This document shows positions 2,903-22,820 of a stretch of 64,000 nucleotides of DNA, in pieces (the first letter of the stretch is position 1; each line of letters starts with the position of its first letter). The stretch covers positions 29,769-93,768 of IMG/VR virus record IMGVR_UViG_3300032893_000763, one strand, 5' to 3'. This stretch comes from a virus. Under the pieces are notes generated by a model, which saw only the letters and a list, made by a program, of their open reading frames with translations, was not told where the DNA came from and made no database searches. Both the position numbers and the translations under genes were made by a program.

Positions 2903-4006
2903 ATGAAGGTGATGATGCTCCTCAACGAGGACGGGCAGCCCTGCGCCTACCACTTCGGCCCGGAAGGCACCGTCTTCCGCTTCTCCGCAGACGACGCCGA
3001 CGCACAGGCAATCGCGTTCACCAAGGCTGTGAACGACGGCATCGAGCGCGGAGAGGAGATCGAGGGCGAGGCTGCGCTCCAGGTGGCCGAGGTCATCAAG
3101 GAGGCTGCGGCTGGCACCGTCGTCTGGAACGGCGAGGACGGCCTCAACGACTGGCGCGACGACATCCAGGCTTCGCTTCCGCGCGACTCGTCCGGCTCCG
3201 GCCCCTACGCCGAGATCGGCGGCACCTACAGCTTCTACGTCGAGGACATCTCGCGCGACGGCACCAAGGCCCTCGTCTGCGGATGGGGCAGCGGCCAGTC
3301 CGAACACTACGTCGTCCCGATCACGGTCAACGCCGAGGGCGAGCCCTGCGCCGCGCCGAAGGACAAGTGGGTCAAGGTCGAGGAGCAGTACGTCGCCACG
3401 CTCAAGGCCGGGCGCAAGTTCTCCTCGAAGCACCTGGAGGCGATGAAGACGGCGCATGAGGCGCTCGGCAAGCTCATCGCCGTCGGGGACGCCGAGCGCG
3501 AGGCTCCGGCCAACGAGAAGGGTGACGAGCCCACCGAGAAGTCCGCGCTCGCGTACACGGTCGAGAAGGCGAACAGCGCGATGCGCTACACGCTCGGCCC
3601 GTTGTACGCTCCGATGCGCGAGGACGCCCACAAGGAGTGGATCGAGGCGGACGAGTTGCAGAAGTCCGTCCACGACTTCGTGCGCGACTCGGCCGAAAAT
3701 GGTCGGCGCATCAACCTCCAGCACGGCGACCTCGGAGACATCCAGTGCGGCGAGTGGGTCGAGTGCCTGGCGTGGCCGTACGAGCACACGATCAAGGTGC
3801 GCAACGCCGCAGGCGAGGAGCACGAGGTCGAGATGCCTGCGGGCACCGTCTACCTCGGGGTCGTGTGGGACGAGGAGTATTGGGACGTGGAGAAGTCCCG
3901 CCCGAAGGGCATCGACGGCTACTCCCTCGGCGGTCGCGCGATGAAGGTGCGCGGGACGAGCGAGGCGCTCAAGTCGATGGGCTACAAGGTTCAGAAGACC
4001 GCCTAG
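2903..4006 (+). CDS. XkdF-like putative prohead (capsid maturation) serine protease
   Basis: C-terminal RYTLGPLYAP..DAH.EW..ELQKSVHDF..INLQH..GTVYLGV..GYSLGG; TAGAAT-6nt-ATG start. Confidence 0.8.
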   Translation: MKVMMLLNEDGQPCAYHFGPEGTVFRFSADDADAQAIAFTKAVNDGIERGEEIEGEAALQVAEVIKEAAAGTVVWNGEDGLNDWRDDIQASLPRDSSGSGPYAEIGGTYSFYVEDISRDGTKALVCGWGSGQSEHYVVPITVNAEGEPCAAPKDKWVKVEEQYVATLKAGRKFSSKHLEAMKTAHEALGKLIAVGDAEREAPANEKGDEPTEKSALAYTVEKANSAMRYTLGPLYAPMREDAHKEWIEADELQKSVHDFVRDSAENGRRINLQHGDLGDIQCGEWVECLAWPYEHTIKVRNAAGEEHEVEMPAGTVYLGVVWDEEYWDVEKSRPKGIDGYSLGGRAMKVRGTSEALKSMGYKVQKTA

Positions 4007-4319: not shown

Positions 4320-4670
4320 ATGTCGGCCAGGGTGTGCGACCGCTGCTCCGTCCGGTGGCCGAAGGGCGAGGAGTTCAAGAAGTGCCCCGGCTGCGGGCGC
4401 AACACGCAGTTCCGCGTGCACATCGAGGCGGAGGACGGGTGGGAGGATCGCTACCTCGACGCTCAGCGGGCGAATAGCGCCATGCCTGCCGTCGAGTCCC
4501 GCACCGACGCCGACCGGCTCGACCGCTTCCAGAAGGCCGGGCTCGACCTCGCGCGGGCGCTGGAGTTCGCCGGGAACCGGCACGTGGATCTCTCGCTGTT
4601 CGAGCGCCTCCGGGGGCAGGGGTGCCCGCTGGAGACTGCCGTCGAGATCGTCGGCCCGATAGACTCCTAG
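4320..4670 (+). CDS. Zn-ribbon hypothetical protein
   Basis: CDRC...CPGC; C-terminal VDL..L..GCPLETAVEI motif. Confidence 0.7.
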   Translation: MSARVCDRCSVRWPKGEEFKKCPGCGRNTQFRVHIEAEDGWEDRYLDAQRANSAMPAVESRTDADRLDRFQKAGLDLARALEFAGNRHVDLSLFERLRGQGCPLETAVEIVGPIDS

Positions 4671-6728: not shown

Positions 6729-7001
6729 TCATCGGTAGTTGGAGAGCGTCTCGCGCTCCCACGCTGCGACCTCCAGGCATCCGCCGGGGTCGTCGTGGAT
6801 CGCGCAGCGGCGGCAGTAGCCGCACGGCTTCGGGGGGTGGCGCTTGACGAAGCCGACGCTCATGCACTGGAAGGTGTCCGAGCCGATCACGAGCAGGTCA
6901 CCGACGCTCATGCTCGGGAGCCGGTAGCCGATGGCCTCAAGCCGGTCGGCGTCGGCCTCGGTCACGCGGTTGAAGAACCGGAAGGCGTCCTCGGGGCTCA
7001 T
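6729..7001 (-). CDS. YodL-like domain protein (possibly the 3' part of a frameshifted gene starting at 7108)
   Basis: AFRFFN...PSMSVGDLLV...FQCMSVGF motif. Confidence 0.55.
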   Translation of the reverse strand: MSPEDAFRFFNRVTEADADRLEAIGYRLPSMSVGDLLVIGSDTFQCMSVGFVKRHPPKPCGYCRRCAIHDDPGGCLEVAAWERETLSNYR

Positions 7002-7105
7002 CGCCGGGAGGGAGCCGCTCCACTCGGTCGCCCGCGTGGGGCGGCCTCCTGGATGCGCGAGGCAATCGCGGAGACGACAGTGATGTGGGTGTTCTGTGAA
7101 GTGGT

Positions 7106-7160
7106 CATGTTCACAGTATCGGCCATATTCACAGGTGTTGTGAATCACCCGAAAGAGTGA
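7106..7160 (-). promoter_or_regulatory. Repeated promoter element, copy 3
   Basis: TCACTC-TTTC-GGGTGA, 23 bp, CGATACT, 6 bp, ATG7108. Confidence 0.85.
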
Positions 7161-7163
7161 AGA

Positions 7164-7241
7164 TGCGGCGGCGCGGAGCGGGCCTCGAACCCGCAACCTC
7201 CGATGCCTCGGGCTCTACCTCTTGAGCTACCCGCCCGCCGC
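7164..7241 (-). ncRNA. tRNA-like RNA with truncated anticodon arm
   Basis: TA-GCTC-AAGAGGTA-GAGC D arm; CCGA-GGCA-TCGG mini arm; AGGTT variable loop; GCGGG-TTCGAGG-CCCGC T arm; extended acceptor stem. Confidence 0.7.
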
Positions 7242-7291
7242 GTGCCGGTTGCACCCCGGCGGCGTCAGCCGGGAAGGAACCGGAAACCCTA

Positions 7292-7617
7292 TGGAGCCGG
7301 TGGGAATCGAACCCACGTCCGAACAGGTGGTGCGCTGGAAGTTGATAGCAGCTTCTTGGGGGCATGTGCCCTCCACCAGGGCAGCCGTCTCTCCGGCTCC
7401 GTAGTCCGCTCGTCTCTCCGAGCCGTCCTTCGCGTGGTGCCCTACGCGAACGAGGGAGCGAAGGCCGGGGACGCAGGCACGAGGCCCTTGATCCACGACT
7501 TCGCCGCGACGATCAGCTTGGTGATCGCACTTGACGTTGCCCTCCGGGCCGGTGCGGTAGGCCGCAACCCGCTGCCTTCTCACGTCCGTTCCTATCCGTC
7601 GAAGCCAGGTCGGCCCC
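7292..7617 (-). ncRNA. ssrA: tmRNA
   Basis: 5' GGGGCCGACCTGGCTTCGACGG; 3' GGACGTGGGTTCGATTCCCACCGGCTCCA; acceptor stem with G3:U alanine identity pair; internal tag ORF 7528-7442; TACACT -10 at 7630-7625. Confidence 0.93.
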
Positions 7618-7649
7618 GCGAGAGAGTGTAGCACCCTCACGGGAGCCCC

Positions 7650-8417
7650 CGGCTCGATCTCAAGCGCATCTCCCTCTGTGCTGTGGTAGGTGCGGGCGTC
7701 GTGTGCGGCAGACTTGAAGCGAGTGGACTAGAGAGTCCGATGCTCCGTCGTCTCTACCACTCTACGGTTTTAGTCGAGGGCTCGCCGTACGCCCCCTTCC
7801 TCCCGCGTTACTCCGCCACACCGTCTAGGCGATGCGCCATTCCGCGCCTACCATCGAGGTCTAAAGCGATGCACCAAGCGGGAGCGCAGCACCACGGCTC
7901 GCGTGCGCCGCGACTAGTGACACGTCGAAGGGAACTCTGCAAGCCCTGAGTGGCTCGCTTCCAATCGGTGTGCGACCTCGTACGTCCGTGCTGGCCGGGC
8001 TCCCGCTTGATTCCTACGAGACTTCCTCAAGTGTCCGCCACGCCGTCCTCTCTCGCCTACCCTACCCGTTCGTGCGCACTCCCGGTTACTCTCGGCTTGA
8101 GACTCTGACGCTTTACTGTTTCACTCGCCCGTACGCCTCATCCTCGTACACCCTTCGTTCAGGGGTCGCCCTCGGTCTTCGCTGCTAGCCGGGGTCGTGG
8201 TCGTTAGCCGTCAGGGGTGTAGTCAACGGTGTGCTGGACGGTACCTCGCAGTGGCGGGCACTGGAGGAAGTCTCGTGAGTCTTCATCCGCGCGACCGTAG
8301 TCTGCTCCTTCGCGGTGGAGACAAGTGATAGAGGGGAGTTCCGCCTTCCGGCCAGTTTCCCGTATCCGCTTGCAAGCACATCATCGGGCCGAAGCCCCAA
8401 GCCTGCAATCCCTCGTA
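7650..8417 (-). ncRNA. Candidate large structured non-coding RNA (~750 nt)
   Basis: No credible ORF; 26-bp long-range helix 8016-8041/8251-8276; 11-bp helix 7875-7885/7999-8009; end-closing helix 8398-8406/7708-7716; UUCG and GNRA tetraloops on the minus strand; TAGGAT -10 at 8429-8424. Confidence 0.7.
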
Positions 8418-8449
8418 CGAGTGATCCTACTGGATTCGGGAAGGTTCCG

Positions 8450-9013
8450 TCAAGAGAGCGGGCAGACGTTGCCGACCTGCACGGGCTTGTAGTCCGTGAT
8501 CTCCACGCAGACGTTGATGTACGTCTTGCCGGGGATGAGATGGCCGTCGTGCTCGGTCGGGTCGTTCGAGGGCCGCATGATGTTCTGATGCGTGTGGCCG
8601 TGGATGTTCGTGTGCCACCACTCGACGCCGATGCCGGTCGAGCCGCGAGACGGGCCGGGGAACTCGACGGAGATCGGCCGGTGCGTGAAGGCCACGCCCT
8701 TGCGGATGAACTCGGGGATGATGGTGAAGCCCGCCTTGGCGTAGAGGTCGCTCTCGGGCTTGTCATGGTTGCCGAGGATCAGGTACTTGCGGCCGGGCAG
8801 GCGCGAGACGACGGCAGCCCACCGCTCGGGGTTGCCCTGCTTGCCCATGAACACGTCTCCGAGATGGAGGATGTCGTCCTCCTCGCCCACGTACTTGATC
8901 CAGTTCGAGAGCATGATGACCTCGTGGCTCTCGGGCCGCGCCTGGAACTTGATGATGTTCTTGTGGCCGAAGTGCGTGTCCGAGATGAGCCACGTGCGGT
9001 TGGCGATCTTCAC
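8450..9013 (-). CDS. Calcineurin-like metallophosphoesterase
   Basis: SDTHFGH, HLGD, LGNHD, FTH, HGHTH motifs. Confidence 0.92.
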   Translation of the reverse strand: MKIANRTWLISDTHFGHKNIIKFQARPESHEVIMLSNWIKYVGEEDDILHLGDVFMGKQGNPERWAAVVSRLPGRKYLILGNHDKPESDLYAKAGFTIIPEFIRKGVAFTHRPISVEFPGPSRGSTGIGVEWWHTNIHGHTHQNIMRPSNDPTEHDGHLIPGKTYINVCVEITDYKPVQVGNVCPLS

Positions 9014-9022
9014 ACCCCTAGC

Positions 9023-9463
9023 CTAGCGCATAGGCTGCGCGAAGACCACGAGGCGGTACGTCGCCGTGAACGGCGGGGTGCAGGTCGTGAGCACGAGACG
9101 TTCGTGCCCGACATCTTGAAGGGGCGCTGCGTCCGTCGGCGCGATGACTTCGCTGCCTGTGACGGAGTACGCCGTGGTACGTCCGGCGACTCGCAGGAAG
9201 ATGCGAGCGCCTCGACGCAGGCGGTCGAGGAAGCGGAAGGGGCCATGTCCGCCGAATCCAGGCACAGGCGTCACCCGGTGTCCAGCGATGGCGATGGTGC
9301 AAGCGCATCCGGGCCGTCCCGATCCGGGGTAGAAGCCGGGGCCGTGCGCGAGCACGGACTCCCCCACACCCTCCCGCACAACGGTGCGGATGCCGAGCGC
9401 CGGAATCGTGAGCACCGGAGCCGGTGCAACGATGGCGGGAGGGGTGGGAGGAGTCGCGTGCAT
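9023..9463 (-). CDS. Sortase (class D/E-like), no N-terminal anchor seen
   Basis: LTIPALGI, IAGHR, LVLTTC, YRLVV: His/Cys/Arg triad present. Confidence 0.9.
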   Translation of the reverse strand: MHATPPTPPAIVAPAPVLTIPALGIRTVVREGVGESVLAHGPGFYPGSGRPGCACTIAIAGHRVTPVPGFGGHGPFRFLDRLRRGARIFLRVAGRTTAYSVTGSEVIAPTDAAPLQDVGHERLVLTTCTPPFTATYRLVVFAQPMR

Positions 9464-11362: not shown

Positions 11363-11400
11363 ACTGGCGCAGACGCAGGGGCTCCGCTACACTCCTGCGC

Positions 11401-21526: not shown

Positions 21527-22524
21527 ACCGACACCACGCCGACCTCCTCTACTCGCTCCAACGGCTGTTCGAGGATCGGCTCAGGATGAATCTCTACATC
21601 CCCATCGGGCACGAGTGGTGGGCCGAGGGCTACTGGCAGTTCGGCAGGGTGTTCGGAGACAACCGGCTCGCACAACAGTACCTCGCCCTCCGCGAGGGAG
21701 AGTTCCAGGACGCGGGCTCGCATTACGTCACCTTCGACTCGTCGCACCCGGACAAGCGCATCCGCGCCGTGACCCGCGAGCAGTTCCGCGCGATGGAGTG
21801 GGACTTCGTGATGCCGTCCGTGCAGGAGAACCAGCGCGGCTACCATCGGCTCGCGCAGGAGGTCGGCGCACGCTACCTCTACCAAGTCGGGAACACGGGG
21901 CAACACATCGACTGGACGCTCGACCCCCTCGTGCTCAACACGAGCGAGGCCAAGATCCCCGAGGGCAAGGGTGTGACGATCCATCAGGAGATCGACTCGA
22001 CGGTGGGGGCGTTCCGCTACCGGCCCGCGATCCTCGGCAACCCGCGCATCGTCCGCTCGTTCGTCAACGCCTTCGACCGGCTCCCCGGCTACACCGGATT
22101 CCTCCAGACGGAGCAGGCGCTCCCGGACTGGCGCTTCACGGTGCACGGGCACTTCGGCAGGGACGGCAACATCAACCCCGTCGCAGCGATGGGTGAGATG
22201 ATGTCGAGCGCCGGATGGGGGTGGCACGACAAGCCGGTGGGTGATGGCTTCGGGCACGTCATCCACTCGTGGGCAGCCGTCGGCCGTCCGCTCATCGGGA
22301 GGGCGTGCTTCTACAAGGGCAAGCTGGCCGAGCCCTTCTGGACGCCCGAGACGAGCATCGACACGACGGGCCGCTCCTTGTCTGATGTCGTCCGGCTCAT
22401 GGACGAGATCGCCTGCGACACCGGCAGGCACGCCGCGATGTGCGCCGCGATTCGCGCGACGTTCGACCGGCTCGTGGACTACCCGGCCGAGGCCGAGGCC
22501 GTCCGCACTCTCCTCGGAATCTAA
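21511..22524 (+). CDS. Glycosyltransferase-like (GT-B)
   Basis: WHDKPVGDGFGHVIHSWAAVGRPLI, a degenerate EGFG..EA..G.P motif. Confidence 0.7.
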   Translation: MRILVDRHHADLLYSLQRLFEDRLRMNLYIPIGHEWWAEGYWQFGRVFGDNRLAQQYLALREGEFQDAGSHYVTFDSSHPDKRIRAVTREQFRAMEWDFVMPSVQENQRGYHRLAQEVGARYLYQVGNTGQHIDWTLDPLVLNTSEAKIPEGKGVTIHQEIDSTVGAFRYRPAILGNPRIVRSFVNAFDRLPGYTGFLQTEQALPDWRFTVHGHFGRDGNINPVAAMGEMMSSAGWGWHDKPVGDGFGHVIHSWAAVGRPLIGRACFYKGKLAEPFWTPETSIDTTGRSLSDVVRLMDEIACDTGRHAAMCAAIRATFDRLVDYPAEAEAVRTLLGI

Positions 22525-22556
22525 CGATTCACGCTCCTTTCGTTAGAAAGTAAAGC

Positions 22557-22610
22557 TCACCCTTTCGGGGGATTCCGTTAGCTTGTGCTCGGGTCGATAC
22601 TTGGGACATG
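22557..22610 (+). promoter_or_regulatory. Repeated promoter element, copy 7
   Basis: TCACCC-TTTC-GGGGGA, 22 bp, CGATACT, 6 bp, ATG22608. Confidence 0.9.
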
Positions 22611-22820
22611 ACCAAGACACAAGCCACATACACCGACGGCATGGGCTTCACCGATGACGAGTGGGAGCGCATGTGGAACTCCGAGACGGCGACCTCGACC
22701 GTGCACCGCGCGAGCGACGACGACGAGGACGCTTGGCAGGAAGCGTACGACCGGCACTTCGCCGCGAATGGCGACGAGGACGCGGCCATCGACTACGCCG
22801 ACGCGAAGGTCTACGGCTAG
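22608..22820 (+). CDS. Small acidic early-type protein
   Basis: Leaderless start; Asp/Glu-rich. Confidence 0.7.
   Translation: MTKTQATYTDGMGFTDDEWERMWNSETATSTVHRASDDDEDAWQEAYDRHFAANGDEDAAIDYADAKVYG

Follow-up and report, generated by a model that had tools for sequence, protein, structure and literature searches.

The 64,000-nucleotide window analyzed here (bases 29769-93768 of a complete, 93.8-kb IMG/VR phage record with a GC content of ~65%) very probably carries, at 8279-8010 on its minus strand, one copy of a previously undescribed, phage-carried family of structured RNAs. The comparative evidence gives us high confidence that this is a real structured RNA and that the family is new. An initial annotation of the region had proposed a structured noncoding RNA on the minus strand, ~750 nt long, that was either a divergent member of the GOLLD and ROOL RNAs or a new class, and it had suggested examining homologs for covariation. 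Such an analysis revealed strong covariation, which together with the strand signal of G-U pairs bears out a structured noncoding RNA on that strand. The proposed giant size did not hold, as the conserved element spans only 8279-8010 and its flanks are without family homologs. The assignment to GOLLD or ROOL also failed: a scan against Rfam 15 with permissive filters (positions 6900-8700) gave no match over the stretch at E ≤ 10, nor did ten homologs give one at E ≤ 0.1. The element is thus absent from Rfam, as had been predicted for a new class, and we found no description of the family in open-access papers or on bioRxiv. We conclude that the element is a new class of phage RNA of 255-415 nt (267 nt in the copy described here) and not a member of GOLLD or ROOL.

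Conserved secondary structure

We aligned 12 members with MAFFT without fitting them to any structure; in this alignment, 91.3% of the cells were paired, compared to 66.8% after shuffling and 33-45% when the pairing partners were slid. Twenty-five of the 33 pairs were altered on both sides, and the covariation score was 0.622 (vs. 0.190; none of 500 shuffles reached 0.622). Six internal helices covary. Both sides are altered across the family in all five pairs of the 5-bp helix P2, in all seven pairs of P4, for which more than 10 different helix sequences occur, and in five of the eight pairs of helix 4 at the base of P5; P6 and P7 (helices 5-7) covary as well. Conserved U-G pairs in P3 are present in 13 and 17 of 25 sequences, and P1 contains 44 G-U pairs across the family. 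Because the opposite strand would have A-C mismatches at these places, the transcribed strand is the minus strand of the window.

The 26-bp helix 8016-8041/8251-8276, already noted in the initial annotation, is well founded: this inverted repeat is 92% complementary with 2 mismatches and scores 20, whereas 40 dinucleotide shuffles reached no more than 12, and it corresponds to the terminal helix P1. When the members were analyzed one sequence at a time with duplexfold rather than on a common alignment, all 27 had an equivalent helix (median, 26 bp) with 673 Watson-Crick and 44 G-U pairs in total. The arms of P1 share only 32% sequence identity between members; they do not align by sequence, which is why RNAalifold missed the helix when given the first MAFFT alignment. 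P1 (~26 bp, imperfect) closes a three-way junction from which two arms emerge, P2-P3-P4-P5 and P7-P6. Within the first of these, P4 encloses the variable hairpin P5 and two single-stranded blocks that are nearly invariant, CUGACGGCUAACGACCACGAC and GCGAYCCCUGAAYGAA. Conserved blocks are separated in the alignments by hairpin insertions of variable length, and the spacing between blocks 2 and 3 ranges from 14 to 112 nt. The window copy contains P1 to P7 and invariant blocks 2, 3, and 4, all within 8276-8016 (Table 1).

Folding energy did not distinguish the region, with z scores of -1.1 for the minus strand and -1.9 for the plus strand over its whole length and ~0 in 160-nt windows. This test has no power here, because the transfer-messenger RNA (tmRNA) used as a positive control also scores ~0.

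Table 1. Features of the RNA element and its surroundings (window coordinates)
Feature	Position	Strand	Remarks
Whole conserved RNA element, new family (model R1)	8010..8279	minus	Full-length cmsearch match
P1 5' arm, terminal helix	8251..8276	minus	Pairs with 8016-8041; 26 positions, 2 mismatches
P1 3' arm	8016..8041	minus	Pairs with 8251-8276
P2 5' strand (ACUG), conserved GAGG internal loop, P3 5' strand (UACCG)	8239..8252	minus
P2 and P3 partners	8118-8115 (P2); in 8127-8122 (P3)		CAGU (P2); CG(A)GUG (P3)
P4 5' strand (UACACCC)	8215..8221	minus	Pairs with GGGUGUA 8153-8147
Invariant block CUGACGGCUAACGACCACGAC	8194..8214	minus	Identical in first 10 homologs, ≤1-2 base differences in others
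P5 hairpin	8169..8193	minus	At variable-length insertion site
Invariant block GCGAYCCCUGAAYGAA, then P4 3' strand	8147..8169	minus
Block CGAGUGAA (P3 3' strand) and P2 3' strand	8115..8127	minus
P7-P6 arm	8055..8096	minus	P7 GCC/GGC; internal loop GAGAGUAA / GGGUA; P6 hairpin loop GGA-GUGCGCAC-GA
Self-complementary octamer GUGCGCAC in P6 loop	8072..8079	minus	Putative symmetric kissing-loop contact
5' leader, outside family element	8280..8417	minus	No homolog in the other 27 members
3' flank (~365 nt), outside family element	7650..8015	minus	No homolog found by any search made
Promoter-like TTGACG-18-TAGGAT	8453-8424	minus	Predicted start near 8417; putative function
Sortase gene	9463-9023	minus
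Metallophosphoesterase gene	9013-8450	minus	Pfam Metallophos; stop at 8450
Stretch free of open reading frames, ~830 nt (831 nt)	Between phosphoesterase stop 8450 and tmRNA 7617
tmRNA promoter region	7618..7649	minus	GCTACACT at 7632-7625, then 7 nt to tmRNA 5' G
tmRNA	7617-7289	minus	ARAGORN; Rfam 46.7 bits
tRNA-like gene, shortened anticodon region	7236-7170	minus	28.4 bits vs. Rfam tRNA threshold 29; no ARAGORN call
Leaderless gene	Start near 7109	minus	Downstream of tRNA-like gene

A palindromic loop and possible self-pairing

The loop of P6 follows the pattern GGA-N8-GA and is selected for self-complementarity. N8 was fully self-complementary in 14 of the 16 distinct loops, compared to 1.5 expected from shuffles, and the two nonpalindromic exceptions are misaligned rows. 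Eight different octamers occupy one fixed offset in the loop: GUGCGCAC, GUGGCCAC, GUCCGGAC, GCUGCAGC, GUUGCAAC, GGUGCACC, GGUGCAUC, and CGUGCACG. Two members that are 97.4% identical (L244 and L251) differ at seven positions, four of which form the center of the octamer, GUGGCCAC in one and GUCCGGAC in the other, with the palindrome kept. Since adjacent palindrome bases cannot pair with one another within one loop, we read this covariation as intermolecular. Palindrome covariation in loop L9.3 of OLE and loop L21a of GOLLD was likewise taken to mark symmetric intermolecular kissing loops, which cryo-electron microscopy (cryo-EM) then confirmed (10.1101/2024.12.08.627333). From the same signature, we infer that the RNA described here would pair with a second copy of itself as a homodimer, and we consider such self-association somewhat probable. 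Only one symmetric contact is evident, making a dimer more likely than a cage.

In the variable insert before P7, three members of the Myrna/Phabba type (L232, L233, and L246) contain another palindromic hairpin, GGGGAGUCAUGACCCC, and it may give the larger members an additional site for self-pairing.

The long terminal inverted repeats, the internal 8-bp palindrome, and the varied contexts of the members, which lack conserved neighbors and so look mobile, raise the question of whether selection acts on the DNA instead, as in a miniature inverted-repeat transposable element with 26-bp terminal inverted repeats or a cluster of palindromes of the protein-binding or origin type. This is extremely unlikely. 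Six internal helices covary, the conserved U-G/G-U pairs denote strand-specific pairing, and there is one copy per genome. Moreover, the palindrome varies in sequence yet stays self-complementary, which points to base pairing rather than to a fixed protein site, and reading the sequence at 8277/8015 revealed no target-site duplication.

Recovery of the family

Direct searches with the 831-nt stretch found no homolog: blastn against GenBank phages and plasmids returned nothing at E ≤ 1e-5, and 401 Thermoleophilia genomes yielded only chance-level matches. Relatives of the neighboring phosphoesterase were at most 42% identical in IMG/VR and at most 56% identical in Joint Genome Institute (JGI) metagenomes, and the RNA was absent from all of these. 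Closer relatives (80-82% identical) were present on Logan contigs. One of them, P0003 (287 amino acids), is 81% identical over residues 1-168 and then continues in another frame; its gene call contains a frame shift near residue 168, followed by ~100 codons that run into downstream noncoding DNA. A frameshift-tolerant protein-to-DNA alignment showed that this tail is translated DNA colinear with window 8449-8116, with a score of 125 vs. 51 ± 7.6 (maximum, 68) for shuffled DNA. Because the alignment requires several frame changes, the tail represents conserved noncoding DNA and not an open reading frame (ORF).

We back-translated the best-conserved island of the P0003 tail, PLTANDHD, into a degenerate DNA pattern and scanned IMG/VR with it. 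Of the 11 contigs that matched, 10 were homologous to window 8253-8037 over an extended length at the nucleotide level (identity of up to 71% over 199 nt, E = 1e-24). At these ten loci, the reading frames around the motif are short, with no bias in GC content at third codon positions (GC3) and no ORF signal. A second pattern, derived from two other conserved blocks, raised the total to 27 IMG/VR contigs (5-167 kb long, 53-71% GC). The covariance model R1 was built from the MAFFT alignment of 12 seed members. It matched the window at a single site, 8010-8279 on the minus strand (204.7 bits, E = 1.4e-49, model positions 1-266), partly by construction because the window sequence is among the seeds, and the same single site was found in the whole 93.8-kb genome. 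R1 recovered every family member at E ≤ 3e-19, with E-values that are rough owing to a shortened calibration; the 15 nonseed members scored 84-210 bits. No R1 match was observed in the sister phage G001 or in control loci.

Extent of the RNA and its flanks

Nucleotide homology of the window to more than 20 other phage contigs is confined to 8307-8011, and because it stops at those two points, there is no support for a single structured molecule of 750 nt. A giant ornate RNA of ~750-800 nt, running from 8417 to ~7618-7650 and related distantly to GOLLD or ROOL with the 267-nt element as one of its domains, would fit the presence of a single promoter-like site at 8453-8424 and the lack of an intrinsic terminator before the tmRNA, at whose 5' end RNase P cleavage could set the 3' end of the transcript. 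The 5'-most 140 nt have a conserved counterpart in the contig behind P0003, and the minus strand is purine rich (33% G, 22% A), as is often the case in stable RNAs. Even so, we judge a giant RNA to be quite improbable. Homology to the 27 or more members ends at 8307 and 8011, both ends of the element are closed by P1 throughout the family, helices beyond its borders score no better than chance, the Rfam scans gave no GOLLD or ROOL match, and the tmRNA has a promoter of its own.

The helices that had been listed outside the element fared differently from P1. The 11-bp helix 7875-7885/7999-8009 proved borderline, its score of 11 falling below the shuffle maximum for the best-scoring helix (12) and above that for the second best (10). 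The proposed 8-bp helix and the 9-bp helix joining the two ends lie in the ordinary range of shuffles. The tetraloop hairpins at 8343-8397 belong to the 5' 140 nt, outside the conserved element. The remaining ~500 nt of the gene-free stretch are leader, spacer, and tmRNA promoter and are not part of the family. For the 5' leader, the sole colinear sequence is the DNA that follows the 81%-identical phosphoesterase behind P0003. A 16-nt inverted repeat in the 3' flank (7875-7890/7994-8009, 88% complementary) is borderline compared to shuffles and has no homologs.

The -10 sequence TAGGAT that the initial annotation had placed on the minus strand is present, as part of the promoter-like site listed in Table 1. 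Two such sites occur in the region, compared to 0.2 expected, and the PVGSL island, which covers CCAGUAGGAUCACUC at this site, is conserved in the read-through part of P0003. We also considered whether the stretch is a leader of the tmRNA and rejected this, as the tmRNA is served by a TACACT promoter of its own. The same TACACT, with 6-7 nt after it, also precedes leaderless ATG starts at 11388 (+), 50353 (-), 2862 (-), and 44697 (+); GCTACACT plus 6-7 nt looks like a phage-wide -10 element from which the transcript starts at the first base of the gene.

Coding status

About 800 bp without phage-like codon bias had been noted initially, and this observation was confirmed, as there is no codon periodicity between 8450 and 7617. 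GC3 periodicity is absent from ~7050 to 8450, where the spread of GC content by frame is at most 0.22, compared to 0.45-0.68 in the flanking genes; the real genes of this phage show that same spread, with GC3 values of 0.92 or more. The 64-kb window contains no second ORF-free stretch of such size. No frame of the stretch matched Pfam or PHROGs, and protein searches with its spurious ORFs as queries found nothing.

In GenBank, the element is labeled "hypothetical protein" or carries no annotation. Coding sequence (CDS) features overlap it in many Cluster C records (Bxz1 gp66, Maby2021 gp66-67), and open frames of 80-120 codons do occur in high-GC DNA, but that the locus encodes small proteins seems to us hardly credible at all. 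No member shows GC3 bias, the family preserves neither reading frames nor the positions of stops, fixed sites carry insertions of 14-112 nt, the P0003 alignment requires several frame changes, and several GenBank records have no annotation at this place. In Maby2021 (L257, 7065-7684) and Bxz1 (22192-22612), CDSs for hypothetical proteins (gp66 and gp67) lie across the RNA element; CDSs of this type over the element are probably false gene calls.

Distribution and genomic context

A blastn search with one member located the element in 205 Mycobacterium phages of GenBank, among them Bixzunavirus/Cluster C1 members such as Bxz1, Cali, ET08, and Tonenili. Among GenBank phages, the invariant block CUGACGGCUAACGACCACGAC occurs only in 207 Mycobacterium phage records, and the invariant block is also present in Myrna and Phabba. 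All members are in phage records. Among bacterial genomes sampled from the phylum that we took as a guess at the host, R1 matched none of 151 and the block-2 pattern none of 401. Scanning genomes for the 3'-end pattern of the tmRNA did not identify a host.

The genes next to the element differ completely from member to member, with none in common. In Maby2021, the element sits within a run of small genes that are all on its strand. The initial annotation described a tandem arrangement with a tmRNA and a tRNA-like gene, preceded by a phosphoesterase. This arrangement exists in the window but does not appear to be a trait of the family: the tmRNA and tRNA-like gene are near the element only here, none of 10 other members (loci of 4-7 kb) has a tRNA within 3 kb, and linkage to a phosphoesterase is limited to this phage and the P0003 contig. 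The sister phage G001, found through its portal protein (76-78% identical), is colinear with this genome, but in place of window 7618-9024, which comprises the phosphoesterase gene and the ORF-free stretch, G001 has 337 unrelated bases, next to a tmRNA that is 78% identical.

Possible mode of action

In this phage, the RNA would be transcribed from the sigma-A-like promoter at 8453-8424. The palindromic P6 loop might kiss the same loop of a second molecule, giving a homodimer or a higher multimer. The 26-bp P1 may act as a processing stem at which the RNA is cut from a longer transcript, as RNase III does on rRNA precursors; we draw the parallel to rRNA processing stems because a long, sequence-variable helix flanks a stable RNA. 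Such processing would account for other members lying within runs of co-oriented early genes while lacking separate signals. On the sequence evidence, RNase III processing at P1 is possible but rather doubtful. The RNA might serve during infection as a stable, self-associating molecule whose invariant blocks bind or sequester a host factor, a role proposed with low confidence; any specific role that could be named at this point is unlikely to be the right one. A broader proposal, plausible though tentative, is that the element forms a symmetric RNA-only dimer or the dimeric core of a ribonucleoprotein, with the palindrome serving as a specificity code against mixing between phages and the invariant blocks as a catalytic center or one that binds a ligand or host factor.

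Several points weigh against the interpretation of the element as a self-associating, functional RNA or temper the numbers behind it. The larger alignment of 27 distinct sequences (93.1% paired, 27 of 33 pairs altered on both sides, score of 0.531 vs. 0.135) was fitted to R1, so its counts lean towards the structure; the unfitted alignment of 12 members agrees with it. P1 was evaluated per sequence, as described above. The proposals of a dimer, of RNase III processing, and of a role are drawn from sequence only, and no conserved partner gene was found that points to a function. Finally, G001, the closest whole-genome relative, does not carry the element, which is therefore dispensable for this phage lineage.

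Relation to known RNAs

It is rare for a new class of large natural RNAs with an intricate fold to come to light, and each one so far (ribozymes, riboswitches, OLE, GOLLD, and ROOL) has given new RNA biochemistry. In human immunodeficiency virus type 1 (HIV-1), the dimerization initiation site (DIS) has a GC-rich loop palindrome with conserved purine flanks that drives a loop-loop homodimer, and subtypes use different palindromes; the palindrome is 6 nt long and lies in a 9-nt loop of the viral genome. The P6 loop resembles this retroviral site in its palindrome and purine flanks and differs in having 8 nt within a 13-14-nt loop of a small phage RNA.

The element shares with GOLLD (RF01998) and ROOL (RF03087) its carriage by phages and an elaborate fold, and the copy described here adjoins a tmRNA and a tRNA-like gene. 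GOLLD and ROOL reside in phages or prophages, frequently next to tRNA genes. Both RNAs assemble with themselves by means of kissing loops, and the palindromes of GOLLD L21a covary (10.1101/2024.12.08.627333). GOLLD is detected by its Rfam model in high-GC Mycobacterium (PMC6582537). In contrast, the element has no sequence or model similarity to either RNA. GOLLD and ROOL are ~600-800 nt or more in length, with a conserved 3' half in GOLLD, whereas the element is 255-415 nt long and is built from one 26-bp terminal helix and a three-way junction, and no tRNA was found near 10 other members of the new family. The OLE homodimer is held together in part by the symmetric kissing loop L9.3, which has a covarying palindrome (10.1101/2024.12.08.627333), the same kind of palindrome evidence as that found in the element. 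OLE is otherwise different, being a bacterial RNA of ~600 nt from extremophilic Firmicutes with protein partners, and the element has no similarity to it and no Rfam match. The likeness of the element to OLE and GOLLD thus seems to lie only in the apparent way of working, a covarying symmetric kissing loop.

Y RNAs, 6S RNA, and retron RNAs also typically have a long terminal stem joining the 5' and 3' ends, and Cluster C mycobacteriophages encode Ro60 and the bacterial Y RNA YrlA (PMC4201824). Nevertheless, we give very little credence to the element being a known long-stem RNA, whether a Y RNA or YrlA (the partner of Ro60), a 6S- or Ms1-like decoy of RNA polymerase, or a retron msr-msd. No Y_RNA, YrlA, 6S, Ms1, or retron match was obtained in Rfam over the element (E ≤ 10) or in its homologs; the sole YrlA match, at a chance-level 17.8 bits, falls in the tRNA-like region and not in the element. 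YrlA is ~110 nt long, has a tRNA-like domain, and adjoins Ro60, whereas this genome lacks a TROVE/Ro60 gene; no RVT_1 reverse transcriptase was found in its 93.8 kb, and no annotation of these kinds lies within 7 kb of the element in Maby2021.

The new family has as its strengths unusually clear covariation, the signature of a symmetric RNA-RNA contact, and its presence in ~200 cultivated Mycobacterium smegmatis phages (Bxz1, Cali, and Myrna among them) that are widely distributed and used in teaching laboratories. The element is therefore directly open to deletion, Northern blots, pull-downs, and cryo-EM. Its recognition corrects "hypothetical protein" annotations in hundreds of GenBank phage records, and R1 could recover more members from metagenomes.

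Other observations at the locus

Three further candidates from the surroundings were rejected. An RNA-repair context was suggested by a PHROGs "RNA ligase" (window 2903-4006, +), which Pfam identifies as an XkdF-type phage protease domain. Repeats of GTACGAGG were set aside, as they are Tyr-Glu codons where found elsewhere. A decayed tRNA array was dismissed, as there were no tRNA-like matches at E ≤ 10.

The sortase gene (9023-9463, -) is without the strong GC3 periodicity of the other genes, suggesting recent acquisition. Approximately 470 nt downstream of the G001 tmRNA, at 4497-4517 of that locus (L174), there is a 21-nt copy (95%) of the 3' end of the tmRNA type carried by this phage, which may be an attachment-site-like remnant. 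The tag frames of the two tmRNAs (window 7442-7528, -; G001, 5130-5215 of L174, -) end in PAF(A/S)PSFA and not in the usual ..LAA.
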